A stretch of 61,613 nt of DNA, filler included, from Hausera hauseri (lineage: Eukaryota), in assembly GCA_046269625.1 (NCBI GenBank). It is 12 parts of 12 records of this genome, joined end to end, with 100 filler letters (N's around TTAATTAATTAA, not from the genome) between each part and the next. Parts side by side here need not be neighbours in the genome. Positions count along the whole stretch, not along the records: positions 53,144 to 57,125 come from JBJURY010841302.1; 11 more parts are not named here. One strand, given 5' to 3'. Position numbers and translations under genes: made by a program. The notes under the pieces are model-generated. The model saw only the letters and a program-made list of their open reading frames with translations. It was not told where the DNA came from and did not search any database. Below are positions 606 to 61,043 of the stretch, in pieces (the first letter of the stretch is position 1; each line of letters opens with the position of its first letter).

Positions 606-679
606 ATTTCCGTATTTCGCTGGCAAACATAAGGTGGTAATTGGCTACTGCGACGTAAACGATTCGCCTTTCCGACTCA

Positions 680-965
680 GAGAAAATTCGGAATTCCGAT
701 TGCTAAGTCGTTCGGAAAAACAGCCTTAAACACCTTAGATGATGTAATATTCAATAAACATTGCATCAGGGAAGCAATTAAAATCCGAGCATTGGACGTC
801 TTACCTGATATATAATCCAATGCAATTGGTCCGTTAAGTGAATCCCTGGTTTCAACGAAGTAATTTATTGAAGACATACAGAGTGGTAAAGTTATACATA
901 GCTATCGAAAACGGAAACGGAAAGGTAAAACCACTGCAACTATAAACAAATGGAAAAGTATGTAG
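680..965 (+). pseudogene. Polinton small basic core-like protein remnant upstream of MCP
   Basis: Manual translation KFGIPIAKSFGKTALNTLDDVI...QSGK...RKRKRKGK. Position directly before MCP is typical of Polintons; one internal stop. Confidence 0.5.
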
Positions 966-985
966 GATTCATATTGCTAATAATA

Positions 986-2178
986 ATGTTCACTGGAAAA
1001 TCCGAATTGGCTTTGTTTGATCATAATATTCCCCAAGTTGTTGTGGAAAGCTCTACTTTTGAGGAAATCTACCCGAAAAACTCAATAACCGGTAACACAA
1101 GTTCGCAGATAGAATTCAATATAATCGGGTCAGATAATGACCATCTGGATCTGAACGATACACTTTTTCGTTTAGAATGAAAACCGTCAAACAAAATAAG
1201 TCATTTATTGCAACGGATAATGATATTACACCATCAATTTACCTACTACATACACTGTTCAAAGAAACTACATTGGCGCTGAATAGTGTAAAAGTGGAAG
1301 ATCTGAACAATACACACATGCAAAAAGCAATTATTAAAACGCCTCTGAATTTCGAAAACTATGCCAATACTGTTTCTCGAATCAGTTGGATACCATAAGG
1401 AGGAAGTAAAACGTATAGTGGATGAAAAAATCAACATCTCGGACTTTATGTGGTCCTCTGATTCTGGATTTCTTTGACGGACGCGAAACGTTTGTGTGGT
1501 TATTTACAAATAGAAAGGTCAAGATGTTGTATATTTGAAATCTGAACTGTATATTTTGAGACTAAACTGTTGGTTCGATGTGCGTGTTGATCAATCGGTA
1601 ATGATTGGTTATCGTCAGGGCTTGAATATGCAGAATGCAATATATCCATTTCAAGAAACGAAAATCGTCCGCTTTACTATTCCGAAAGACTCCCATGGTT
1701 TATTCAAGGATAACTTGTTTTCCGACGAACGTTTGCCAAAATTCGTATTGATTGCATTCCAATCATCTAAGCAGTTTAGTGGAGATTATGACTCGTTTAC
1801 CATACGTTCTCCAGTTACAACATCAAATCATTATCGTTGATGAGAAATGTCGACTATCGGGAAATCTATACCATGGATTTTTAAAAAGCGGACTGTACCG
1901 AGGCCTAAGTATAATCCATTATTCGGAATATGGGTTTGTTGAACCGGGATGGTAATAACGGTATTACAATGGCCGACTTCAAGGATAACTATTCCTTCTG
2001 TACATTTGTTTTGTCACCGAACTTTGAGATTGAACAGGCACAATTAGGAAAAACTGGTAATCTGAAATAGGATGTAAGATTTCAGAAAGCTCTACCAGAA
2101 TCGATGATAATGTACGCTCATAGTGCGTTTGATTCACAAATCCAAATTACTAAGGATGATGTTGTAATCTTAATATAA
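986..2178 (+). pseudogene. Polinton/Maverick major capsid protein (PY), disrupted
   Basis: N-terminus MFTGKSELALFD..PQVVVESSTFEEIYP...IEFNIIGSDNDHLDLNDT, middle DNLFSDERLPKFVLIAF and C-terminus GNLK*DVRFQKALPES..FDSQIQITKD match Polinton MCP motifs; multiple stops and frameshifts. Confidence 0.85.
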
Positions 2179-2235
2179 ACAATAAAACACACGTGAAGTA
2201 TTTTTTCCTATTTTTTTCTCATTTTATTTTGCAGT

Positions 2236-2330
2236 ATGTCAAATTGGAAATAAGTTAAAGCGTAAGCTGGGCAAACATTTCATAGGTGTCTGTCCATTAG
2301 AACGTCTGCGTGATTACCTACCTCAATATT
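2236..2330 (+). pseudogene. Start of Polinton adenain-like cysteine protease (truncated)
   Basis: QIGNKLKRKLGKHFIGVCPLERL resembles the F.GVF..D.L N-terminus and sits immediately after MCP, the usual gene order. Confidence 0.5.
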
Positions 2331-44005: not shown

Positions 44006-45645
44006 CCTAACCATCCAGAATTAAATTGGCCAAACCACATGTACCATCCCCATGCCGTCGCAAATATATCCTTAGCAATACGCTTAGCATAATCCGGTCC
44101 CATTAAATTTTCCCAATTAGCTCTGCCAGTGTGTTCAGACAACACCTTCATAGCCATCTCTGTTAGAACCTTTTGTCTTTGTTGCGGGAACATCATCATT
44201 CTTCTATGATTTTCCATATCTTGTTGGGAATATACACCCATCTTTACTAGGTCTGTTAATGGCTTGTACGTTTGTTCCGTTTTTAAATTGATCAAGCTAA
44301 TCCTTCTAGGTGAGGTGATGTGCTCCTTGCCAGGCATCCTTATCCAGTAATCATCAGTCAATCTGAACGTTGGTGACATAGTATATGTACAGTTCTGATG
44401 TAGTAGCGGCTTTTCCATAGGATCCAATAGTATCCTAGTAATTGGTTGTAAAAAGCGTGGTTTCTCTTTATACCAAACAGGCAATTCCGTAGTACATTCT
44501 GCGATTGGTCTTAACTTAACAGTTACTCTTGCACATTCGAAGGTTACGAGAGCTTCTCCCATTGTTCTTGCGAACTTTCCTTCCGCATCTGGTGACTCAG
44601 CTGGGTCTTTCATTATGCCATCCGTTATTGCTGATAAGTATATCCGATTTCTAATTATTTCTCTATTCAACTTACAATCGTTTAGTATTATTTCTCGATA
44701 CATCGCGTAAATGTTTTCCTGTTGAAAATGATAGATAAAATCAATTTTATTATCAAAATACAGGTGAGGCTTCACTTCCGATTTGTGTATATTTCTTTTC
44801 GCTTCCTTTATTTTATTTACTGACAAGAATATGCCTTTGTAGTTCGTTCTATATACTACTTCATTACATTTTCTTGTCTCGCCTTCTAATTTGAACCTCA
44901 TTCCTTCATTAGGATCTACTGAATATACTATGGTTGGTGTCTCGATCGTATCTGATACTCGATCTAATCGACTTTTCGATATTTCTTCTTTATATATTTT
45001 TCCTTTGGTTTCATTAAACTTCCCGCTTCGTAACAAGGCCAACTGACATTGATCTTTGTCGACTTCATACGACATGATCGATTCACCCGTTTCACATTCT
45101 TTATTATAATAGTCACATTCTGGGAATGTCATCATTTTTCCAGATGATAACTCAAAAAGAGCATCATATTCCCTCAGCTCGACTTGATAGTCTTCGATAG
45201 CTACAACATTGTCGAGAATTTCACCATTAATATTATACGATTCACCTTTACAGTAGCCTGTTTTGTCGATAGTTCCTGCCATAAAGATTCTCTTGTTTAT
45301 GATTTTCCCTTTTTGAGCTTTAAGTCGAATATTTCCAATAGTTATTTGTCTTGTCACGAAGGCTTCTGTACACATTCGTTTACTTATCAAAAGTGGTTCA
45401 AATGGGGTAGTCGGTTCTACTATAGCCGAATTCCGGTACCAATATCCGCAAATAAAGTAAAAATGGTTTTTCCGGACGAAACATTCCTTTACCTTTGTTT
45501 TCGCAAATTCTGATTCCTGATACACGTGATAGTCTTTTTCTGGTACCGTAGTTAATGATGCTGGGTTGGCGAATGGGCATTTTTCTAAATCCAATAAGGA
45601 ATATATTGGACCTTCCTTAGCTTGACTGCAGTCATAAGCAATGAT
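44006..45645 (-). other. Env domain: chuvirus/gB-like (class III) fusion glycoprotein ectodomain
   Basis: IIAYDC...YSLLDLEKC start, C.V......CG, CTEA, GEALVTFECARVTVKLR...CTTELPV...FLQPITRIL...C and membrane-proximal WGWYMWFG, as in chuviral G and related retroelement envs. Confidence 0.78.
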
Positions 45646-47967
45646 CGAAAGTGTTTTTGGCACCAAACTGAATAGAAGGAGTATAGGTATAACTTTAGTT
45701 AACCATGATAAATCAAAATCTGGTTGTTGATTTCGTTGTCTCTCGGTTTGTTGAGGCGGAGGATGTTCCATTCGTCCTTGTATAGTTGGTACTGATTCAT
45801 GAATAGTTGTGTGAACTAAACTTGTAATCCATCCACCTCTGCACTTTACCCATCCTTCTACATTGGCTTTTAATGCTCTTGTAGCGATTTCTATATTTCT
45901 TTCAATTTCCTCTTGATTTGGATTCACGCCATTCATTACCATTATCTTATACAGGAGGTAGGACATAGCGGTTACGATTTTGTTTCGAGATATACCGGTT
46001 CCCATCATCCTTGAGAGAATATCTCTCTCCTGTATTTCGTTTATCCTTTCATCAGTAGGAATATCCGCGAATTGTTCACTTATTTTTGCAATTTCATTCC
46101 TAATGTTCTGCATTAGTGAGTCTGGTATTTGTAAATTTGTGTTAAATTCAATAAAGGAATTATGCATTCGTGCTAATAGAGTTTGTAGTAATGTAGTTAA
46201 CGACACATTATCTACATCGTATTCATCTTCTGTTGTCAGTAATCTTCGGACAACTTCGTCATCCCTGGCCTTTCTGCCTTTTAATTGATAGAGTTTCGTG
46301 GTTCCTTTAGGTCTTCCACGATTCCTCTTATCGGTTTGCATTTGTTCTGATATAGGCACATTCAATCCGGCCTCTGCCTGTTGAGGCATATATTGATGTT
46401 CGGCTTCTTGTGTTTCTTTTCGCCTAACATCCGTTACAATCTCATCTATTACTTCTTGTTCGGTTAGTCTATACGTAATGCATACTGGATTATATCGGTT
46501 CTCCCAGATACCTACTTCATATAAGGTTTCATGGTCCATTAATATTCGTCCATAGAAGCGTAACTCTAATTCGCCCTGTGGTTGCTTTACTTCGTCGATC
46601 CGACGTTTTAGCATAAGTATTGTATCTGATGATTTCATTCTGAACATCTGGAAATCTTGGTTATATTGTTGAAGAGTGACCATTACTTCTGGGTCTTCTC
46701 CAATGGTTCTCACTCTGATGGCATACCGATAAATTATATATCGTACGATATCCTGATATGGGCTTGTACCAGCAGCATAGGTTAACAATAAGTCCAATAA
46801 GTTAATGAATTGCTGATGGTTGATTGTTGGTGAGAGTAACATAGACAAATCTTGTCTAAACCGATTATCATCGATTAACTCTTGATTGGCATAGTTGGAT
46901 ATTTTCCGAACTATTTCTCTACCATCCTGGTCTAAATCCACAGATGAGGACTCATAACTTGGAGATTTTTCCTTCGTTTTCTTTTTCCTTATTCTTTTTA
47001 TCTTTTCTTTAGGTTCACCTTCTCTGCCTGACTCACTTTTTCCGCTTTCACTTCCGGAAGGTAAGTTCGGTTCAGGAGTCTTCAATTCCTCCTCTTGTAT
47101 CAAGGGCTTATCCTTTTTTTTAACCCTTTTCTTTTCGACATCGGATTCTGATGAAGGAGTCTTTTTTTGTCTACCAACAGGAGCAATGATTGAATTCTCA
47201 TCATTCATTTTCTGCCTTTTCTCGCAGATTTGTTGTTCCTTTAGTTCAAGATATAACTGTTTTAATTCAGCTATCTTGTCTTCATCTTCTATCGTATTAG
47301 TTTTACTCTCCTTCAGTTTTGCTCTGATCTTCTGCTGTAACTTTTCAATTGATTCTTCAGGTTCCGTATCAGTAGTTTCGTGTTCATTATCTGTATCTGA
47401 TACAGTACCTACTATGTCCACATTCTTCTTCTTCTGACTTGACTGTCCTTGATTAGGACAAGTGCGAGCCATGTGTCCATATCTTTGACATGCAAAACAC
47501 AACGGTTGTCCATCTTGATTAATTGGGGGTTTTCTTATGGCAGACTTTTGAGGTTGATTCTGCCAATTACCCTGAGATGGCTTTTGCCACGTAACTTTCT
47601 TCTGAGTCTGTTGCTCGGGTTGATTTTGGTACCTTTGGAATGATTTCGGGAAACTTTTCCTTTGTTGAACATTTTTCTGTTTCTTCTCATCGTTCTTAAA
47701 AGGCTTTTTTGCATTTTCAAGTCTCTCATAATTTACTTCAATTTTCCTAGCTTTGCTAACAGCTTCTTTGTAAGTATCCGGATCTGCAACTATGATGTAG
47801 TTCTGGATTTCTTTATTAACTCCGTAACAGAACTGAGCTAGGAGGGCATCTTCCCTTATATCATCATCTGCGTAGGCTCTCTGAGCCAACTTCTGAAGGG
47901 CACATGCATACTCTTGCACGGTTTCGCCTTTTCTCTGACGTCTTCTATTGAATTCTCCAATTCGACC
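44006..47967 (-). CDS. Gag - ubiquitin-like - AT-hook - Bcl-2-like - signal peptide - viral glycoprotein polyprotein (open at both ends)
   Basis: About 1320 codons without a stop; RRQRKGETVQEY gag motif, CFACQRYGHMARTC knuckle, Ubl-like segment, RGRP, BH-like motifs, hydrophobic signal then IIAYDC and a Cys-rich ectodomain. Confidence 0.88.
45815..46230 (-). other. Bcl-2-like helical domain
   Basis: BH3-like IAKISEQF, BH1-like GISRNKIVTAMSY and BH2-like VEGWVKCRGGW in the right order and spacing. Confidence 0.65.
46465..46686 (-). other. Ubiquitin-like (beta-grasp) domain
   Basis: SDTILMLKRRI...LRFYGRILMDHETLYEVGI versus ubiquitin SDTIENVKAKI...LIFAGKQLEDGRTLSDYNI; no C-terminal GG. Confidence 0.72.
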
Positions 47968-50972: not shown

Positions 50973-53043
50973 ATATGATATCGGTTGGTTACGATTGACG
51001 ATGTTTTTGTTACTTTATTTGTTTTGCTCGAACGCAAATTATATCGTTTGTCCGGTCTTATTTCCGTTTGAACTACTCTCTGAACTGATATGACCTTTTC
51101 TTTACCGTTTTTATTTATATAAATTGCAGTTGGCGTATTCTTGGTTACTTCATAAGGTCCTCTGCCTGTCCTAGTAAGTTTCAGAGATGTGCCTTTCTTT
51201 GCTACTGGATAGTGTACATAAACCTAGTTTCCTGGTTCTAAATTGTGGAGTTTATCTTTCTTATCGTATTGCTTCTTGAATTGTTCCTGGTATTCTTTAG
51301 ATAATTCCTTGGCTATTTCCCAACCCTTGTGTAGTCTTGATTGTAGTACCTCGACAAAACTTTGCTCTAAATCTTCCGCTTTTGTTGTGTAGGGAATTAA
51401 TCCTAAATCTATAGGTAGTACAACTTCTCTGCCATACATCATAAAAATGGAGTGAATCCTGTCGCAGGATGTGGAGTAGTATTAATGGCAAATTGTGTAC
51501 CTTCCAAGAACTCAGCCCAATCTTTCTGGTCTTTTGAGACTATTGTCGATAAGATTCGTATAACTGTTGCGTTCATTCGCTCAACAATTCCATTACATTG
51601 GGGATGATAAACCGCAGTAGTTAGTCGTTCAGTCTCAAAAAATTTGGTAATTTTATCGAACAATTCGCTCGTAAAGTTTCTTCCTCGGTCTTTCAAGATT
51701 TGTTCGGGTGGCCCGTATTTGCAAATGATTTTCCGAAATACTGCTTCTGTTAAAGTCTCGGCCTTTTGGTCTAATAACGCTATAAGCTCCACGAAATGAG
51801 TCAATCGGTCTACACAGGACAAAATGTATTTTTTATTATTGTGGGTCGTATACAATGGTCCTACAATATCCATTGACATTGCTTGCATTGATCTATCGGG
51901 CACGTCGATAGGCTTAAGCTCGGCGATGTAGCTTTTCACTTTTCTTTGTTTGGTTGCACTTAATTCACAAGGGTTCACCCAATTTCTTACGTCGATGTAG
52001 ATGCTCGGCCTATAATATTTATTTAATATTCTTTCCAATGTCTTTTTACATGACATGTGTCCCGCTAAATACGAATCATGCTCGGTCATTAGTACTTCTG
52101 TACGCAATCCTTTTAGTATGACTACCAATTTTTGTCCTTTGCGTTCGTAGTATAACATATTATCGTTGTTCAAGTCTCCAGCGACGCAATATTTATGACC
52201 ATATCGTCGTAGGTGTTTCCGTAACTGATGACCCTTTGGTGTTACGTTGGCATCAACGAACTCGATAATCTGCTGTATAACCTTGTCCTTTTTCTGTTCG
52301 ACAGCAATCCCCAATGCCTTATCTAGTGTAAGGGTCCGTTGTCTTTCTACAAAATTTTCAGGGTGTGCTTTCCTTATTACTGTAACTGCGCTTGTTTTGA
52401 TTTTAAGTCTCGATAATGCGTCGGTGTCGATATGTTTATTTCCGGGATTGTATTGGAATTCAGTATTGTAACGTGAAATTTCCTCAATCCATCTGCTCAG
52501 TTTACAATTTGGATTATTCACTCTACCCTTTAAAGTCTTAACTGCATTATGATCAGTAACGATTACATTCTTTTGCCCATAGACATACATGTTAAAGTGT
52601 CGCAGTGCTTCTGCCACTGCCAACGTTTCCAACTCTGTTACGGAATAGTTCTTCTCAGCTTTCTTTAAGGAACGTCCTCCGTATACAATTGGGTGTTCCA
52701 TTTCCTCGTCTTCTCGTTTTTGGGCCAGTTCATATCCGATGCCTTCCTTAGTGGCATCCGTTTTGATTATGAACGGTAGGTTGAAGTCAGGATATTTTAA
52801 AACAGGTTCACTAGTCAGAATTTTCTTCATTTTATCAAAAGCTTTTTGTTCAACATCGTTTCATTTCCATTTGATTCCCTTCTTCAATAAGCGATATAAA
52901 GGTGCGTTTATCTTCTCATTGTCTGGCAAATAGGTGGCATAATACCCACACAATCCTAACCAGTGCCTTAATTCCTTCTGATTTTGAGGTTCCATACAAT
53001 CCGATATCTTACTTAATAATGATTTATCCGGCTTCCATCCACC
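50963..53043 (-). mobile_element. Gypsy pol: RT end, RNase H, integrase with GPY/F
   Basis: IKTDAT, NYSVTELETLA, TDHNA, HDSYLAGH, MDIVGPL, DRGRNFTS, YHPQCNGIVER and GPYEV. Confidence 0.95.
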
Positions 53044-53143: not shown

Positions 53144-53450
53144 ATTTAGATTTCACACCAATTGCACGTGCAAGACGACTAAATACACCAATGTATGTTA
53201 GCACGTACCGATACCCATCGTTTTTGCTGGCGTACCGAATCATTTCCATCAGATTCATTTGCCATACGTTATTTACACCGGTGGAACGCTATGCACGAGT
53301 GGGAAACCGCCTTCCTGTCGGTTTGGTTAGGCTCTATGCTAACTGTTTCCCGAGCCAACGTTGGATCTATTGCCGAGTCTGTTTGACAGTTTTGCCAGTT
53401 TGCTGACGCCAGTATACCCCACGAGATGATGCGGGTCGAACCACACGTCG
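53144..53450 (-). pseudogene. Polinton retroviral-like integrase N-terminal part
   Basis: YTGVSKL...RWLGKQLA*SLTKP.GRRFP...VWQMNLMEM..YASKNDGYRYVLTYIGVFSR matches the Polinton INT pattern. Confidence 0.8.
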
Positions 53451-53605
53451 CCCATCGGTGTTGTCGTCGTCGATGGTGCCGGTTTTGCTTGCAGTACAAC
53501 AATTTGAACGAAACGTAAATAAAAGATTCAGTAAACTGGGGCAAAATTATGAAAACCATGCACGCATATGGCCTAGTCACAATATACTTACCGTCATTCT
53601 TTATA

Positions 53606-54050
53606 CTATGCTGCAGAACCAATGAGTCCACCCAGCAATAACGTGACAATTGGCAGAACTGCACCAAGGAATCCACCATCTTGCTGCTACATGACCCCTC
53701 GTTTCAGTCGTTTACTACGGGCGTCGGCAAGGCCAATGAGTCGTTTTCGATACTTTAATAAATTCCGTTTTCCACTACCAATGTCAACGTGACCCACAAT
53801 GATATTGTACAAAATTTTCATCAAATCGTCTACTACAAATTGGGGACATGATCACATCATGTTTCGCTTATGTCTCGTTGGTGCCTTGCCACTGTGATGG
53901 TAATTTGCGTCTAGTTGCTACTTTTGTTGTTCGAAGCACAGAATTGATTAATCGCTTGACTGTTGCGGCGGTTCGTTTTGATACAAGATTCTTGCCAGGC
54001 ACCCGCTTGGTATGTTTATTTTTAAAAACTGTTTTTCAGGAATTCTTCAT
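53606..54050 (-). pseudogene. Polinton basic protein with C-terminal GGFL amphipathic tail
   Basis: LYNIIVGHV...LLKYRKRLIGLA...QQDGGFLGAVLPIVTLLLGGLIG. Confidence 0.6.
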
Positions 54051-54057
54051 TTTATCA

Positions 54058-54713
54058 CTATCGTGTCATAGATTTTTGAATTTGTTTATATACACATGCA
54101 CCTTTCTGATTGAAAATGTTTGTTCGTGTACGCATGTCATTGTAACACTGTTGCGTAAAGTCGATGAACAAGTATCTGTGTGGCTCGGTCGTAGCATCAT
54201 GATACCCATCTATCAATTACGCCCGGTTCTCAGGAAATGCTTGTAGTGCAACATAATCAATGATAGTCTGATCACCGGGATTTTTGAACAACACCAAATA
54301 GTGTACGTATAGATTTCATGTTCGATTCTGTCCGCCCTGATGGAACATGTTTTGCGTAATTAAAATAACCGTTACGCCACGGTGTCGTGCAATATTCGTG
54401 AACAGGTTGTTGAAGTCCGATTGTTTTTTTGCCACTTGAAATAAATCGTCAATGGCAATAACGTCACCGTTGCGTAATCTCTCTGGCCAGTTTTCATCAA
54501 ACCCATAAATTACCGTTATTGATTTCAGTTTACAAAATCCTCAATGTGCCAAACCGGACTCACCATCATCACCAACACCCTGATGCCAGTATATGTGATT
54601 GTACCGCGGTGAATGGAACATGTCACGGTAGTTCTGCAATAGTTTACATAGTATGTTTTGCCACTTCCACTGGGGCCTACAAACTGGAAAATTTCATCAT
54701 TCTGCAGCTTCAT
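54058..54713 (-). pseudogene. Polinton packaging ATPase (A32/FtsK-like)
   Basis: GPSGSGKT, VIAIDDL, LFTNIARHRGVTVILITQN, YLVLFKNP, DATTEPHRYLFIDF and RTNIF. Confidence 0.9.
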
Positions 54714-54810
54714 ATAAATAATAATAATGATGCAATCTTTCCTCACCACATGATTTGTTTATAATCGTGTTACACGCATATAAAAAGGTGTAGTATAAAC
54801 ACTTTCCATA

Positions 54811-55201
54811 ATGTTAGCTTATATGAACTATCGCGGACATGTTACCGAGTGTGACATTAACACACTACCTTTTAATCCATGGAAGCCGAGGCAGTATGTC
54901 TTCAAGTGTCCACCAGATTTTACATATATGATATTTCAATTGGGAACGTGTCGTATTATGGGTTGTTGGAAACCAATCACAGCTGATAAACTACTATTGT
55001 TCGGAATTGTCATTGACCAAATTCAAAAAATAACGGTAACGACTCAGTTAGACTACCAAACAATCAATCTGTACAAATTAGCAATGGCCGCTGAATGTAC
55101 ATATGAACCCGAACTGTTTCCTGCACTGAGACTGACATCGTTTCGCACACCGTATTAATGTGTTTAGCAGTGGAAAAATTGTTGTGCTGGGTGGACTATA
55201 A
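54811..55201 (+). pseudogene. TATA-binding-protein-like gene (two TBP repeats, frameshifted)
   Basis: MIFQLGTCRIMG (repeat 1), INLYKL...YEPELFPALR...INVFSSGKIVVLG (repeat 2). Confidence 0.8.
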
Positions 55202-55592
55202 ACCGATTATTAATCAAATTAAAATCCACATTTCACAACAAACTATAAATACCTTTCCCATGCTCATTCAAGCAGTACTTCCATCGAAGACGACGATAAA
55301 GCGATTCTATTCAATGATACCGATGATGAAACTTCAGATTGGTCGTGGTTGTTTGGCTACGAAAAGGACAATTCTAATGTCAAAATGCTGAAACGAAAAC
55401 AGAATCTGTCCAACAATTATAAAAATCTAATGACGATTGTCTGGAAACGAAAAAGGAACTTGCTCAGAAATCATCAGTAACAAAACCGACGTTAAAAAGG
55501 CAAAATTCAATGATTGGAATAAGTAAACGAAAATCAAAACATCGTGTCAAACACAGACATTTTTACCGAAACGTATTTTTCGAAAGTATTAA

Positions 55593-55943
55593 ATGCATTT
55601 TCTGCAAACGCGTGTACTGATTTCATTGAATGATCCCGTGTATCTATGCGTACCCAAGTACAGCTATCGTGTAAAACGGCTTTCGGGTGAAAATTTGGAT
55701 AAACTTTCTGATGCTCTACATAAATTAAACGTTGATTTAAAGTTGAACGGAACGATCGTGCAACAGCAGTCTGTCGTTTTACCGGCTCAGAAAACGAAAT
55801 TATTTGATTTTATCAGTTGTGAAATGTCTCGTGCCCGACATGATGGCTTAAAGTGTCGAATGTATATTGAGTTACAAGGATACAAGGAAAAAGCTGGTAT
55901 CAAAAGCCCGATTTGGCGTGTAGCTGAAGCACAATTTGATTAG
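55593..55943 (+). CDS. Hypothetical Polinton accessory protein
   Basis: Intact 116-aa ORF followed by AATAAA and a T-rich tract, like its neighbours. Confidence 0.5.
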   Translation: MHFLQTRVLISLNDPVYLCVPKYSYRVKRLSGENLDKLSDALHKLNVDLKLNGTIVQQQSVVLPAQKTKLFDFISCEMSRARHDGLKCRMYIELQGYKEKAGIKSPIWRVAEAQFD

Positions 55944-56008
55944 CAATAAATTTTATTGTTTTGTTTTACCGTTTTTCTTTTTTCATTAACCCAATTAATA
56001 AGTGATTA

Positions 56009-56450
56009 ATGAATGATGTAAAGATTATCTTAACAGACGAAAATGCTTTTGTACCGAGACGTGTTACAGCAAACAGTGATGTGCTTTCCTATGTCAATAC
56101 GACAATTCCTGACAGCACAATCAAATGCATAACGACTGGAGTTCGATTGGCGATTTTGCCCGGTTACTACGGCCAACTTTTATGGAAAAGCAGATTGGCA
56201 AAACTCAGACTGACGGTTGTGGGGAGCGGCGGTGTCATTGATTCAGACCTTCGTGGTGAAATTAAGGTGTTGCTGTAAAACCAATCCGGGGAACCGTATG
56301 CTTTTTAGAAAGGCAATGCAATTGCACAAATCGGTTTTCTTCGCTATGAAGATGCGGAATTCAGTGTAATGTCACCGGAACAATGGGGATTGTTTTGCGT
56401 CAATGAATCGGCACGAAATGAACGCAAAGAATTTGGCTTTGGTGATATGG
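56009..56450 (+). pseudogene. dut: Trimeric dUTPase
   Basis: ITTGVRLAILPGYYGQL, GGVIDSDLRGEIKVLL, GNAIAQI and R.E.GFG motifs; internal stops. Confidence 0.88.
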
Positions 56451-56544
56451 ACAAAACCACCTATGTTTAATGATTGGGATATTAATAATAGTCAGTTGTT
56501 TTGCTTGTATTATAAACAAAAAATGATTTTGTACATGATAAGTA

Positions 56545-57031
56545 TTGGCGACAAGATTTATAGATATTGAAGCTTTCCAAGATGATAATACCCGGTACTT
56601 AATAAAGGAATTATGCATTATGGACGTCGGTAACATTTTTGAACCTCTTGTGTACATATTCAAGCCCGTTATTGTGTGGAAAGACCTGACGGAAAAAAGG
56701 AAAATTACAAATGGATTTCTCTTTCGACATCGTCATGGACTTCATTGTTATGAAGGCAATTTAACGTTTTATTCTCCATGTATAATGGGAGAGATTTGTG
56801 ATTGTTTTGACATTGAAAGTACAATAATTTACATTAAAGATCAAATTGACGGACAAAAGTTTACGCAACTTCATTCAGTTTTTCGAGTTGCGAATGACGA
56901 CGTATTCAACAACATCGAACAACTCGCTGGATATGGTACCTGACAATATCCGATATCCGTATCGTGATCACGGACCACATTGTGCTTACAAAAAATTCTG
57001 CGGCTTTGTATTGACTGTTTTGTGCAAATAA
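56545..57031 (+). pseudogene. DEDD-type 3'-5' exonuclease-like protein
   Basis: FIDIEAFQ...LIKEL...IFKP..W...HRHGLH.YEG...HCA pattern seen in Polinton/insect DNA-virus genes. Confidence 0.55.
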
Positions 57032-58013
57032 CTAAATATATGTACGTATTTCCTTTTTTCTGTAAATAATTTTCATGTCATGTTTAGCAGTTTTGATCAG
57101 TTGAATAATTCAAAAACCATAAATANNNNNNNNNNNNNNNNNNNNNNNNNNNNNNNNNNNNNNNNNNNNTTAATTAATTAANNNNNNNNNNNNNNNNNNN
57201 NNNNNNNNNNNNNNNNNNNNNNNNNTCATTTCATGTTGCGATTGCTTAAGTAATTCAAGTAAACAATTAATCTTTCATAAATAATTCGGAGCAGAGCCGG
57301 CGTACTGTAGGACCGTGGTTCAAGTAAATTAAATAAACAATAACTACACATTACCCATAGGATAGATAAGAAAGGTTTTCGCAAGATAATATCTCTGTTC
57401 ATAGATTGTTATTCGTCTCATTTATTCAACTTTTAATTGATTCTGTCACGTAACATTAAATAAGCCTCTCCCACATAAATTGACGGCGACTGAACAAGTA
57501 TGTAGTTAATGTTTTCTGTTTTCATAAAATTATTTAGTTAAAACTTAATTTTTCTCAATATTTGAGTGACACCGAAAAAATTCAAATAGATCTTTGAATG
57601 AATCCTGAAAGTGAAAACACCTCAGTCAGAGAAACTGCTAAGAAACTATACAGATGCAACAAGGAAATCCGAAATTATTTAAAGAAATGAACGAATTGCG
57701 GATTCAAAAGACCTTAAAAAGGCAATCGAATATTGACGTAACATCAACTTGGTTAAATTCGAGATGAGCTTGCCAAAAATCAACTGCATTCGACACAAAT
57801 TAATCGTAAGTTAGATCTTCCTGTGCCTATTAAACATGTTTCTCGCATGTTATTCAAAGATATTCAAAGAAAATTGAAAAAATCCAAATTATAAGTATAA
57901 ACCTGAAAAATAACAGGGTGGTATATAATTGTGAATGGCAATTTTAATTACTAAAAATACCCAAATAAAAATTTCGAAATTTTTATAAAGTAGGTAGTTA
58001 ACATAAAAATTAC

Positions 58014-60550
58014 CCGTAGCATTAATTTTAACCTTACGAGAACTGTCATTTAACAATCTCACCAAAAGTGGAATGGCTGGCTTTACGGATTGATACAATT
58101 TGTCGTTGTGAAAGAGGGAATTTTCAATAATCAGAGCACAACACTTACGAACAACTTGATCTGAATTTTCTAAATTTATAATAATAAACGACATCAGATT
58201 GAATGAATCGAGAACATCATAGAATGAACTTCTGCTACGTGTCAAAAGTCCAACTAAACTTATAGATCGAGCCAAAACTTCAGGCCTTTGGTCCTTCAGT
58301 ATTTGTATGAGTGGATCGTAGTCATCTTTATCGCCTTTAAGAATTGAACAGACAAGTTCTTCCGATTCAGGTACAAACCGAAGTATTTGACACAAAATTC
58401 CACAAACGCCACATTTAATGTCACAATCAGACTGGTTATCTGCCGATGGGGCAGGTTTAGTTAACATCCAGTCTCGAATTAATTGCCGATATTTTGAGTT
58501 TGACTTTACTGTAGCATAGATCTGATCCAGAAATATTTCGTCACTCATTGATAAATAAAATAGCAAGCCGACAACCATTTCAGCTTGTCCTCGGGCAAGA
58601 TATTTTTCAGAAGACGCCAAAATGTTATAAACAATTTTTAGATCGGAATAACTTTCTAAAAGCGCTTGATGCATTTCACTGGATAGCTAAACTACAAAGG
58701 GAAAACATAACATCTGAATCGAACAAATTAAAATATCTTGAATCAAAGTGTTATTATTTGGTTTGCTGGCTGGGCAATCGTAAATAAACTGAATGAAACG
58801 TTGATCAATCAATGCCCTAATGCAATTAAGACTCAGAGAATTACTCGAAACTAAACTTTCCACAGACGCAAATGGTTCCTTTGTAAAACTACAAATAGCA
58901 ATATTGAGAAATAACAGAATTCCCTGAGGAGAAACTAATGACCATAGTACATGATCCTCATCAGAATTTTCCAAAAACCCATCGATAACACCCAACGTTT
59001 GAGCCAACCTTTGCCAAAAATAATCCAATACTCGGTTTTCGAAAATTAGATGTACCAAAGAAAGATCAGGATCATATGTCGTTATCTGGTAAAGAAAACT
59101 AAATATGCCATCGAGTACTCCATAATTCAGCGGACACATTTGGTATACTTGATCGAGATCCATCAAAAGGTTTTTTGTAGCCTGTACAATTTCATGAGGT
59201 TCGATATGAATCGCAGTATTGTGAGTAATGAGCTGACTACACAATAATGCTGCAGCGGCCGTATGACTCGGCAGCTTTGAATCAAGCAACAACGCTACCA
59301 AGAGACCAATGTTTTCCGAAACTAATTTAGGAACTAATTGTACTTGGATCATTAACAGCGTAATACAGTGGATGACAGTTTCGATTGTAATTGGGAAGTC
59401 AATTTCTACAACAGATATCTTTCCATGTAGGATCTGAAAACATTGGTTTAAGAAATCCTTATTGTCAAAACACTGTCTTGCAAATCGAGAAGATATTTGC
59501 AAACAAACATAAATAATCTGTAGAGATCCCAAACATAAATTGTGATTACCCAGAAAATCCATAAGTAAATCAATAACATTCTCATTATATGATGAATATA
59601 ACGTTTCAGCTAAGTAGAATGCTATCTTTCTGCGAGCCTTAAATCCGGTTGCTTCTGGAAATGAAGTACTAATTAACGAATATATAGCACTGAGTGTGTG
59701 AAGAATAATTTCGTCAAGTTTACTGTTTGTTTGCAAAGACTCCAATTCAGACGTAGATCTCAATTTCTGTACCATCAGTGTCTCATCTTTCCACATTAAT
59801 AGAAATTTCAGCATTGAGTCGAGACTTTGTATGTTGATTGAATATCACAGTAAAAATCATATTTGATATTTCTTCTGGTCTATTTTCCAAACGATCACAG
59901 AGATATTTCAAACACAGAACACTTTGCTCTCTAAGTTTCATGTCAGCGTCACACTTCTGCGAAAATAATTTTGGAATAATGCTCACGAATTTCATTGAAA
60001 TATTCGAATAAAGATCTAATGCATCTCGTGCAGCATCATTCTCATGGGCGACTTCACTAGCAAAATAGGCATTAACACCGATCAGCAGATCCAATAAAAT
60101 TTGCTGATGCCATGGTTGCTTCTTAGCAACTTGTCGATCAATGAGATCAGCTAGTAATTTTATGATGTGTGACGGAATATTTGTCTTTGAATAAAAATGG
60201 AGTATTACGTCTAAATCACATTTTATAGTAATTGCATTCGTAATAACTTTCAACAGTGATCTGATTTTTGTAGCTCCCTCAATGTTACCTTCCAGAATCT
60301 TTTCGCGACAAAATCTAAGTCTTGCGGCTACTTTGGCAATAAAATCTTCTGATAGAAGAATATTGGGATCGCTGTGCTCTTCGGATTCATCAGCTAGTGC
60401 TTGCCATTCATCATCACTATTCTGGTCATCTTCAATATATTCGATCTGCTCAATTTGCGTAAGGGATTTTTTAAGACTTAAATTTTTCATTCCTTTTTCA
60501 TAATCGACACTAATTCGATTTTCCAATTCAGTGGGAGGATCAACTTTATC
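58014..60550 (-). pseudogene. STK36: STK36/Fused C-terminal regulatory (ARM/HEAT) region, no kinase domain, disrupted
   Basis: SDDEWQAL...ILEGNIEGA...QPWHQQILLDL...NAYFA...REQSVLCL, GVLDG, LVSPQG, QMLCFPF and AIPLLVRLLND; frameshift near 59800, stop at 58687. Confidence 0.85.
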
Positions 60551-60568
60551 ATCCCACTTCTGACACCA
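60551..60568 (-). promoter_or_regulatory. Primer-binding site, tRNA-Leu
   Basis: Exact TGGTGTCAGAAGTGGGAT on the minus strand, 3 nt after the LTR end ...CCCACA. Confidence 0.85.
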
Positions 60569-60571
60569 AAT

Positions 60572-61043
60572 TGTGGGTTGAAGTAAATCCATTAAGAATG
60601 ATAAGAAACAAATCCAAGACGAGATAGATACGACGATATAATGTAATCACAATTACAAAAAATTCAAAATCAATAACCAATAAAAATTCAATTTCCATAT
60701 TTACATTCATTTTTATTTACATACACATATACACTGCGAAAAGAAAGTTTGAAAACAAAACAATTACAACACAATTCTGGAAGAAACATCTACAAAGAAG
60801 CAATTCAAATCCATACACACATTCTGTTTGTAATAGCCTTCTCCACTTAAAGAACTGGCGGCTAAATTTTTCTTACAAAAGAAATTCTCCATCAGCAGTC
60901 GAATGAATCTGGTGGCACTGTTTGAAGCTTTGAGCAACATCATTTGATAAAGGTCTTTTCCGATAAAATAATTCCGTAGTATGAGAAATGAGTAAAATCT
61001 TTCCGTCGGAAAAACCAGACGCGCCCACCATCGCGGCACCACA
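60572..61043 (-). mobile_element. Gypsy LTR (472 bp)
   Basis: TGTGG...CCACA termini, preceded by PPT GCCACG9TGA and followed by PBS. Confidence 0.8.

Follow-up and report, generated by a model that had tools for sequence, protein, structure and literature searches.

A shortened TBP and a TATA-like word as a likely late-gene switch in a Polinton family

The described elements closest to the locus studied here are the adintoviruses and Polintons-Mavericks (Starrett et al. 2021, PMC8502044); they share with our element an rve integrase, an FtsK/A32 ATPase and a pX-like GGFL gene, and with its relatives an adenain protease and a PolB-like gene. Its Supplementary Fig. S2 bears the labels dUTPase, MAEL and SSDBP on animal elements, and TBP stands as a label only in the legend of Fig. 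5, in the section on non-animal datasets. This figure label is the one mention in print of a Polinton TBP that we found, and the accessible portion of the paper describes no TBP family, structure or promoter. In beta- and gamma-herpesviruses, which encode a vTBP (KSHV ORF24, EBV BcRF1), the late box is TATT and the vTBP surface that faces DNA is more polar (PMC7498053, PMC12529657). Canonical TBPs insert four intercalating phenylalanines into DNA, in yeast F99, F116, F190 and F207 (PMC12529657 Table 1).

We studied a Polinton copy in the genome of Hausera hauseri and its relatives in metagenomes. The results suggest that this family likely owns a switch that turns on late genes by means of a shortened TBP (mini-TBP) and a TATA-like word, a matter that bears on Polinton gene timing and on whether animal Polintons make virions unaided.

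Gene content of the Polinton contig

The window, i.e., the whole stretch analyzed (61,613 nucleotides, filler included), joins 12 separate contigs of H. hauseri (NCBI GenBank GCA_046269625.1) with identical 100-bp spacers between them. Contig JBJURY010841302.1 (3,982 bp, window positions 53144-57125) is a decayed piece of a high-copy Polinton with nearly all its genes broken: stops or frameshifts were found in the integrase, GGFL, ATPase, TBP, dUTPase and nuclease genes, and coverage in run X1 showed the stretch to be a high-copy repeat, the TBP gene being covered to the same order as the ATPase and integrase. The contig ends inside the element and carries no PolB, capsid genes or termini; nor was a PolB seen elsewhere in the window. 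The features were as follows, the last on a separate contig:

53145-53470, minus strand: Polinton-type rve integrase, N-terminal part, broken and truncated by the contig end (tblastn 50% to the L038 integrase, E 2e-25)
53606-53860, minus: small gene with GGFL motif and stops (tblastn 39% to the L010 homologue, E 3e-25)
53846-54050, minus: short K/R-rich ORF with stops (translation)
54058-54713, minus, ATG at 54713: packaging ATPase of A32/FtsK type with P-loop (61% to L010, E 7e-74)
54084-54090, minus: TATAAAC box in the terminal portion of the ATPase gene, lying 40 nt upstream of the basic K/R-rich ORF
54757-54763, minus: TATAAAC box, candidate late promoter, 50 nt upstream of the ATPase ATG
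54779-54787, plus: canonical TATA box TATAAAAAG, candidate early promoter, 32 nt upstream of the TBP ATG
54794-54800, plus: second TATAAAC, absent in relatives; its distance to the TBP ATG, 17 nt, does not fit the family spacing
54811-55260, plus, 3' end approximate: mini-TBP gene of ~150 codons (Pfam PF00352, E 1.4e-10)
55259-55519, plus: acidic low-complexity ORF remnant (translation)
55575-55943, plus: ssDNA-binding-type ORF (T7 gp2.5/Enc34) with a predicted OB-fold
55945-55982, plus: AATAAA and T-tracts, candidate poly(A) site directly after that ORF
56009-56470, plus: dUTPase with two in-frame stops (Pfam PF00692, E 1e-13)
56511-56517, plus: TATAAAC box upstream of the nuclease-like gene
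56542-56995, plus: DEDD-fold Cys/His nuclease-like gene, frameshifted (35% and 41% to L029, in two pieces)
986-2172 (stretch 941-2180), plus: putative major capsid gene, decayed (tblastn E 3e-69 to L038)

The integrase, GGFL gene and ATPase that the initial annotation had placed on the minus strand were all recovered there by tblastn and translation. The integrase matched Pfam rve with E 0.04, and that of the relative L012 with E 1e-12. The ATPase has a frameshift near 54645-54651 in addition to its stops; the intact ATPase of L012 matched Pox_A32 (E 1.8e-6), and in the ATPase tree the window copy grouped with mini-TBP elements (99/97). A gap of about 100 bp to a divergent TBP-like gene had also been described, and the two start codons are 98 bp apart. 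The K/R-rich ORF had no tblastn match among the 56 metagenome loci with mini-TBP, nine of which have a homologue of the GGFL gene; we take the latter to be a pX-like virion core gene, a label drawn in part from PMC8502044. A Gypsy integrase at 51442-52860 was rejected as part of the Polinton; it lies on a different contig and did not align with the Polinton integrase piece (E 16).

On the plus strand, the ORF at 55575-55943, listed before as unknown, gave an AF2 model (pLDDT 78) whose four best matches among 48,161 chains were DUF2815, Enc34 SSB (VIA, rmsd 2.8, 109 aligned), T7 gp2.5 and ASFV CP312R (Z 8.8, 8.8, 7.7 and 6.7; next 4.8). The model indicates an OB-fold of gp2.5 type and a putative ssDNA-binding protein. 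The acidic ORF before it likely belongs to the same gene, as its N-terminal portion or as a first exon: an acidic ORF or extension precedes the ssDNA-binding domain in relatives, and the remnant itself had no tblastn match in the 56 loci. AATAAA and T-tracts had been reported after several genes; they stand for the ssDNA-binding ORF (AATAAA at 55945, T-tracts at 55972 and 55978) and the ATPase (AATAAA at 54020, minus strand), and 'several' was generous because a close AATAAA follows the stops of these two genes only.

The dUTPase and the DEDD-like nuclease of the initial annotation were both present. The dUTPase is 35% identical to that of Polinton L069, and dUTPase adjoined mini-TBP in 0/56 loci; divergent TBP and ATPase genes occurred in 2 of the 14 loci with an ATPase, and both were rejected as family traits on these counts. 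The nuclease-like protein resembled RNase_T/Rv2179c-like models in the Atlas (TM 0.65-0.71), with a Maelstrom lead at 0.86; the Maelstrom domain combines a DEDD fold with an E-C-H-C zinc site, and E, C, H and C are conserved in relatives of the gene; none of 11 such proteins matched PF13017, and no Pfam family was found for them. It is likely the 'MAEL' of the adintovirus maps. Sequence searches against the PDB with alignments of the ssDNA-binding and nuclease proteins gave no credible match.

Relatives supplied genes that the contig lacks. A PolB-like ORF of 879-1089 aa with Endonuclease_7 was found in L012, L023 and L057; it is without PF03175 and therefore falls in the Beta class by the definition in PMC8502044, which replaces a 'group 2' label considered for it. 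An adenain protease is present in L036 (Pfam C5, E 1e-7). The capsid-like gene at 986-2172, which by its sequence putatively belongs to a related Polinton, has TATAAAC at 941 (45 nt upstream of its ATG) and at 2174. Relatives carry a putative major capsid gene as well. 'Capsid' and 'penton' are our presumed labels, given from size and gene order; the putative capsid proteins had no Pfam or PDB match.

The mini-TBP family

The window mini-TBP has two breaks, one near 55146-55154 and one near 55200; it is 77% identical to the intact relative P0004 over 54811-55146, with a further piece at 55154-55210 (tblastn). With the break read as X it scored 41.3 bits against Pfam TBP (cut-off 22.9), and seven of seven relatives scored 45-67 bits. 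The AF2 model of P0004 (pLDDT 85) aligned with human TBP 164-337 over 148 residues (VIA Z 10.8, rmsd 2.9), the next non-TBP chain reaching Z 6.3. The TBP fold is thus predicted across both repeats, as a two-repeat saddle whose first repeat is without both helices; the gene had been called compact and two-repeat, and the two repeats stand by structure while repeat 1 is cut down.

Among 1314 candidates 710 matched mini-TBP, of which 120 were listed and the other 590 may include canonical TBPs. In the 120 listed members, 115 have 140-165 aa and no extra domain; a search for longer forms, weak as evidence, gave two among 7995 scored, of which one is fused to an adjacent gene and the other is TRF2-like. 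Polinton core genes were found in 22 of the 56 loci, and they flank mini-TBP in 14 of the 21 loci of at least 3 kb; L012 and L023 are near-complete elements, and L057, retrieved by its ATPase rather than by TBP, carries a mini-TBP (E 8e-50). Scans of IMG/VR with TBP, ATPase, capsid, integrase and full-length TBP queries, and of a phage collection, gave no relative; neither a Polinton without TBP nor an NCLDV TBP sequence came out of them. The initial annotation had proposed a Polinton lineage with a TBP; TBP-family genes are indeed there, in more than one lineage, since full-length TBPs occur in Alpha-PolB elements.

These data bear on the idea that the gene is peculiar to this locus, either retrocopied from a host TBP or inserted by chance. 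The mini-TBP model shares 19-28% identity with cellular TBPs and 8-20% with viral TBPs, as a retrocopy would have it, and because of this difference its distant origin may, on sequence grounds, be cellular. The hundreds of equally short members, their Polinton context in many samples and the high copy number in run X1, with coverage of the order of the ATPase and integrase, refute a copy unique to this locus and leave that idea a negligible probability. The TBP tree had a single TRF2-like protein (P0131) on the TRF side and is subject to long-branch effects.

Residue conservation was counted in the 120 members. Three of the four intercalating phenylalanines are kept (F40 120/120, F117 120/120, F101 119/120), and the yeast F99 position is a KP-xQ motif without phenylalanine. 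Repeat 2 keeps a YEPELF stirrup and two intercalating phenylalanines; its acidic TFIIB-binding residues appear retained in the alignment, E99 (yeast E188) in 120/120 and position 97 as E in 115 and D in 5. N4, the equivalent of yeast N69, is kept in 117 and that of N159 is Ser in 117, leaving the symmetric asparagine pair incomplete. Lineage-specific polar or altered residues are N6 (116), R46 (119), M48 (120), S72 (117), C113 (120) and N115 (120). Mini-TBP is no canonical TBP and is at best TBP-like in its working, and the missing phenylalanine could mean weak DNA binding.

The YEPELF motif on the TFIIB side, which is the best-kept part, the loss of Phe99 and the single letter that separates TATAAAC from a canonical TATA box would also suit a decoy that binds host TFIIB or TBP regulators and damps host transcription, with TATAAAC read by host TBP or TRF. 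The concave face of repeat 1 has near-invariant, family-specific residues (N4, N6, F40, R46, M48), which is more than a pure decoy needs, and box type follows TBP type (see below); we consider a decoy unlikely. A third idea, that mini-TBP binds A/T-rich DNA of the element and acts with the neighbouring ssDNA-binding protein in replication or packaging rather than transcription, would fit with the ssDNA-binding-type gene, F1 or F10 and never both, of 29/56 loci (the family of ORF 55575-55943 in 22/56; F1 and F10 are weakly alike, hhalign probability 19%). Such a role is improbable given the retained TFIIB-binding glutamates and a box that sits at promoter spacing ahead of genes, not at the ends.

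The TATAAAC box and the proposed switch

In mini-TBP loci ATAAAC occurred 15-75 nt upstream of 33/52 core genes versus 8/88 accessory genes; shuffles gave a mean of 3.3, with a maximum of 10 in 500. The counts are not independent because the 56 loci were picked by TBP, are mutually related and come from few samples. The box also ranked first among 6-mers and among 7-mers found de novo. All 12 ATPase genes counted in relatives have ATAAAC, at -31 to -47, and the ATPase of L057 lacks the exact word; the window ATPase box, at -50, is beyond this range. It preceded 6/8 nuclease-like and 3/4 F11 genes and was scarce before integrase (1/7), GSGW (1/6) and ssDNA-binding genes (3/20). Several copies overlap coding sequence and may be maintained by the codons there. 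The 3,982-bp contig has five TATAAAC, among them one at 55197, versus about 1.1 expected; the whole window is not enriched (21 versus 17.25 expected).

Before 42 related TBP genes ATAAAC was found twice and TATAAAC never; a canonical TATA preceded 19, CCAAT 13 and an initiator-like word 30. The intergenic TATAAAAAG noted earlier exists; most likely it serves the TBP gene itself as a promoter of host type and is not the target of mini-TBP. As a control, in Polintons with full-length TBP (contigs of a single assembly, G002) the box preceded 2/35 core genes (shuffle mean 2.0). There a TATAAAAG-like word, chosen after inspection, stands at -35 to -39 before 4/5 GGFL and 3/6 integrase genes. L052 and L055 have a longer repeat 1 yet ATAAAC, therefore helix loss is not required for the box.

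These observations led us to propose, with a probability of roughly 0.6, that an early-made mini-TBP reads TATAAAC and brings host Pol II to late genes via TFIIB. The protein would be made early from its host-type promoter, would bind TATAAAC(A/G) about 35 nt upstream of packaging and putative virion genes, and would recruit RNA polymerase II through TFIIB; we infer the timing, the DNA binding and the TFIIB contact. The transcription-initiation factor suggested in the initial annotation is likewise an inference still, now joined by a matching promoter word. In TBP-DNA structures, repeat 2 is the TFIIB side and reads the 5' TATA half, the 3' end being left to the repeat 1 half. TATAAAC departs from TATAWAWR at its 3' end, and both helices and the Phe99 equivalent are gone from mini-TBP repeat 1. 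On this proposal mini-TBP would favour TATAAACA over TATAAAAG. The surfaces through which TAF1, Brf1 and Mot1 control TBP include helix H2, whose loss would release mini-TBP from this control. The ssDNA-binding protein and the dUTPase would act in replication, and the nuclease-like gene might perhaps counter host small-RNA defence.

Alternatively, the box could be read by the late machinery of a helper virus, in a virophage-like manner, or be a 3'-end signal of the gene before it, the TBP gene being unrelated cargo. Virophages reportedly have promoter motifs in common with the giant viruses that help them, as do some Polinton-like viruses; ATAAAC also looks like AATAAA and is frequently found where the upstream gene ends. 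However, the letter before ATAAAC was T 31, C 6, G 2 and A 0 times (n=39), unlike AATAAA, the window ATPase box is situated between head-to-head genes, where no gene of that strand ends, and accessory genes bear host Pol II-type promoters, which point to nuclear transcription; both versions seem rather doubtful. As for the wider form of the mini-TBP switch, that a single self-encoded TBP and its cognate box make an early-to-late switch in animal Polintons and co-evolve (trimmed with TATAAAC, full-length with the TATAAAAG-like word), we see the chances as even.

With a defined factor and a box of seven letters, Polinton timing becomes directly testable, and the box could call late genes in unannotated elements. 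If the proposal is true, mini-TBP is an orthogonal TFIIB-recruiting factor outside TFIID control, and a natural experiment on how far TBP can be reduced and which residues set box specificity.

Comparison with other TBPs

Like cellular TBP and TRF (PF00352), mini-TBP has the predicted two-repeat saddle, with a near-canonical repeat 2 (YEPELFP, FSSGK); it differs in a repeat 1 of ~60 residues instead of ~90, without helices, in having no N-terminal extension and in the replaced Phe99 and Asn159 equivalents. If it works, this ~150-aa protein is to our knowledge the smallest TBP saddle. The TBP-like factors of NCLDVs (ASFV B263R-type, Mimiviridae, phycodnaviruses, poxvirus VITF-3) were matched with Foldseek E of 1e-5 to 1e-3, have 186-500 aa and are 8-20% identical to mini-TBP. 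These factors work with an RNA polymerase that the virus itself encodes, and a gene for such an enzyme was not seen in the mini-TBP Polinton loci.

The herpesvirus vTBP offers a precedent: a viral TBP fold with polar substitutions where it faces DNA, an altered box at late or structural genes, early genes that have canonical TATA, and host Pol II, a function that in Polintons would be similar. ORF24 has 752 aa and several domains and belongs to a complex of six members; it keeps the four phenylalanines but not the TFIIB-binding acids, and its contact with Pol II is direct, whereas mini-TBP (~150 aa) has kept the acids and has lost one phenylalanine and two helices. The herpesvirus vPIC type pairs a vTBP that has a Pol II-binding N-terminal domain with five partner activators; 115 of 120 mini-TBP members, at 140-165 aa, have no extra domain. 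If our reading is true, these Polintons represent a second, far smaller and independent instance of the herpesvirus late-gene strategy.

Gene content of the Polinton fragment

The window comprises 12 contigs of 4-8 kb each, separated by identical 100-bp spacers; in all 11, a 12-letter linker with stops in every frame sits between two blocks of 44 N. Since these joints are artificial, synteny across them is artificial too and neighbouring contigs are unlinked. The element lies on a single contig of 3,982 bp (53144-57125), whose genes were read by six-frame translation and by tblastn with intact relatives. The features are:

Minus strand: integrase, N-terminal part (tblastn 50%, E 2e-25)
Minus strand: GGFL gene, named after its motif (tblastn 39%)
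Minus strand: basic ORF, between the GGFL gene and the ATPase in listed order
ATG at 54713, minus strand: ATPase (tblastn 61%, E 7e-74)
54779: TATAAAAAG, observed in the sequence
54811-55146 (ATG at 54811) and second piece 55154-55210, plus strand: TBP-like gene, 77% to the intact relative P0004 over 54811-55146
Plus strand: acidic remnant, after the TBP-like gene and before the next ORF
55575-55943, plus strand: ORF with ssDNA-binding-type fold
Plus strand: dUTPase (Pfam E 1e-13), with two stops
Plus strand: nuclease-like gene, split over two frames
986-2172, plus strand, contig 1: putative major capsid gene of a second Polinton piece, flanked by TATAAAC at 941 and 2174

Translation and tblastn thus recovered the arrangement proposed in the initial annotation, with integrase, GGFL and ATPase on the minus strand, the TBP-like gene, an unknown ORF, dUTPase and nuclease on the plus strand, and TATAAAAAG in the intergenic region. 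Six genes carry stops or frameshifts, so this copy is dead; the element is a real, dead Polinton fragment. Structure comparison gave the formerly unknown ORF (55575-55943) a T7 gp2.5/Enc34-type ssDNA-binding protein fold. The nuclease-like family has DEDD-fold structural neighbours (Maelstrom lead 0.86) and conserved Glu, Cys, His and Cys, and had no match in the Pfam search.

The second decayed Polinton piece (633-2330, plus strand) includes GSGW-like and protease-like remnants. Other contigs carried pieces of LTR retrotransposons and, split over several short ORFs, a dynein heavy chain, which makes the host a eukaryote and most probably an invertebrate. A single open frame of ~1,300 aa (44006-47967, minus strand) is an LTR-element-like ORF with unusual cargo: besides parts resembling a Ty3 capsid and zinc knuckles it contains ubiquitin, a domain of Bcl-2-like type and a fusion glycoprotein of the Monjiviricetes type (E 1e-67). 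A long intronless HEAT/ARM-repeat-like frame interrupted by frame changes (57889-60646, minus strand) is possibly a host retrocopy or an assembly error.

In the sequencing run X1, 28,455 contigs aligned to the stretch, covering 30/30 bins mostly at 90-99% identity. Summed depth, which is no copy number and comes from what may be the window's own source sample, was 148,000-282,000 in the TBP bins and of the same order in the ATPase and integrase bins. The coverage shows that the stretch, its TBP gene included, is repeated at high copy.

The mini-TBP family and its relatives

The TBP-like gene was expected to have a compact two-repeat TBP fold, and this held. With X at the break it scored 41.3 bits on Pfam TBP, and the model of P0004 (pLDDT 85), whose best structural matches were TBPs, aligned with TBP at Z 10.8 and rmsd 2.9 over 148 residues spanning both repeats. 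In this model repeat 1 has four strands and zero helices and repeat 2 is complete; alignment to full-length TBPs placed two deletions in repeat 1. The window gene as query found 7 relatives among 11 candidates, and a profile from these 7 matched 710/1314 candidates. Among the best 120 of the 710, lengths were 131-192 aa (140-165 aa in 115/120).

Residues were mapped by alignment, less surely in repeat 1, to the yeast DNA contacts in Table 1 of PMC12529657. Equivalents of F116, F190, F207, P191 and N69 are retained and that of F99 is lost; V71, V122, T124, N159 and L205 line up with Asn, Arg, Met, Ser and Asn, each in 116-120 of the best 120 of 710. Both glutamates of YEPELF are retained; counted back from F190 they are 186 and 188, versus the TFIIB-contacting acids E184 and E188 of the same source. 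Beside this retained pair we set the reading of the mini-TBP as a TFIIB decoy, a minor possibility.

In the protein record P0130 and at loci L030, L033, L035 and L047, the mini-TBP and family F10, its second ssDNA-binding-like neighbour, were called as one protein; F10 and the other such family, F1, never shared a locus. A replication role for the mini-TBP appears improbable.

A metagenome scan yielded 100 pattern matches and, from these, 56 mini-TBP loci, many of them short. Among these, tblastn found ATPase in 14 loci, nuclease in 11, GGFL in 9 and integrase in 8. By ORF families a core gene was present in 22/56 loci and in 14/21 loci of 3 kb or more; 45/56 had a core gene, nuclease or ssDNA-binding-type gene. 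The divergent TBP-ATPase layout stood for the window copy and failed as a shared trait (2/14 loci); dUTPase is present on the element contig and was found in 0/56 mini-TBP loci, many of them short. Loci L012 and L023 were near-complete, with TBP, ATPase, GGFL, integrase, putative penton, putative major capsid and PolB, and the window ATPase clustered with their type in the tree (support 99/97). Their PolB, without PF03175 and with Endonuclease_7, is of the Beta class by the definition in section 7 of PMC8502044. The TBP-like gene thus recurs in Polintons, has an architecture of its own and is matched by a candidate late promoter; its origin as a retrocopy is exceedingly improbable.

Cargo genes in mini-TBP Polintons encoded a ubiquitin-conjugating enzyme (L023:225-719), a leucine-rich repeat protein (L033:1918-3327) and a RING finger (L038:1710-2168), and penton-like genes were duplicated at L023:5616-7684. 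GTAA...AG intron-like spacers between the acidic ORF (F5) and the ssDNA-binding domain (F1), at L005-L007, L009, L011, L012, L015, L017, L018 and L026, suggest a putative spliced two-exon gene; L023 and L031 carry a long unspliced form.

Four loci were chosen by ATPase alone: a mini-TBP is present in L057, the Alpha-PolB element L058 carries a full-length TBP (185 aa), and no TBP was seen in the partial loci L059 and L060. The assembly G002 had TBP matches on 4 contigs, three being whole genes (183-188 aa), one of which adjoins a dUTPase. Intermediate TBPs at L052:1-537 and L055:747-1235 retain the length of both repeat-1 helices, carry the mini-TBP motifs KP-xQ and RxMGC, and have a divergent ATPase alongside with ATAAAC upstream. 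TBP genes are therefore spread over several Polinton lineages. The G002 contigs L058, L064, L069 and L072 are Alpha-PolB Polintons within a bacterial MAG, with two-repeat full-length TBPs. The ~250-aa neighbours of the G002 TBPs had no match in the Pfam search; by eye, from their motif, they look PC4-like.

PMC8502044 (preprint 10.1101/697771) uses 'TBP' as a label in the legend to Fig. 5, and its Supplementary Fig. S2 bears the labels dUTPase, MAEL and SSDBP; the term 'TBP' was absent from the searched portion of the supplement, the remainder of which may hold annotations of the gene. Term searches found neither TBP nor TATA in the main texts of PMC11161782, PMC11296320, 10.1101/2023.08.22.554363, 10.64898/2026.10.13.758929 and PMC11071296, and a literature search for 'polinton' with 'TBP-like' returned zero papers. 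Literature listings yielded no Polinton TBP family or promoter; subscription journals, Repbase, figures and bioRxiv supplements may annotate the gene.

The ATAAAC word and a proposed late-gene switch

Upstream regions were taken from the first ATG where 100 nt were available and de-duplicated at 80%, the rest being dropped, and ATAAAC was scored at -75 to -15. It preceded ATPase in 12/12 cases (-31 to -47), GGFL in 6/9, capsid in 6/7, penton in 4/7, protease in 3/4, integrase in 1/7 and GSGW in 1/6, so that pooled core genes had it in 33/52, where shuffles averaged 3.3 and reached at most 10 in 500. Among accessory genes it was present in 8/88 (TBP 2/42, ssDNA-binding 3/20 and family F11 3/4 included), and nuclease, counted in neither pool, in 6/8. 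TBP genes were preceded by a canonical TATA (19/42), CCAAT (13/42) or an initiator-like TCAY word (30/42). The base before ATAAAC was T in 31/39 and A in 0/39, and that after it A or G in 39/39. As a control, core genes of full-length-TBP Polintons on 9 G002 contigs had ATAAAC in 2/35 (shuffle 2.0); there a TATAAAAG-like word, a pattern chosen post hoc in one assembly, occurred at -35 to -39 before GGFL (4/5), integrase (3/6) and penton (1/5). TATAAAC occurred 21 times in the whole window (17.25 expected) and 5 times on the contig of the element, where about 1.1 would be expected (Poisson P 0.006); P values are exaggerated, since the loci are related to one another.

Against a promoter stand a TATAAAC 17 nt upstream of the element's TBP ATG, the element's ATPase box at -50, and the L057 ATPase without an exact ATAAAC match. 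The box as a helper-virus or 3'-end signal is unlikely.

We favour, at a probability of about 0.6, the mini-TBP as the element's late-gene switch, with host TBP acting first and the mini-TBP next on TATAAAC(A/G). Host TBP would first transcribe the accessory genes, those for TBP and the ssDNA-binding protein among them; the mini-TBP would then bind TATAAAC(A/G) with a specificity set by its remodelled first repeat, its intact second repeat would recruit TFIIB, and packaging and virion genes would be switched on. Which half of the box each repeat would read, and what helix H2 would bind, are assumed here. For comparison we look to the herpesviruses, as described in PMC7498053, PMC12529657 and PMC12917281.
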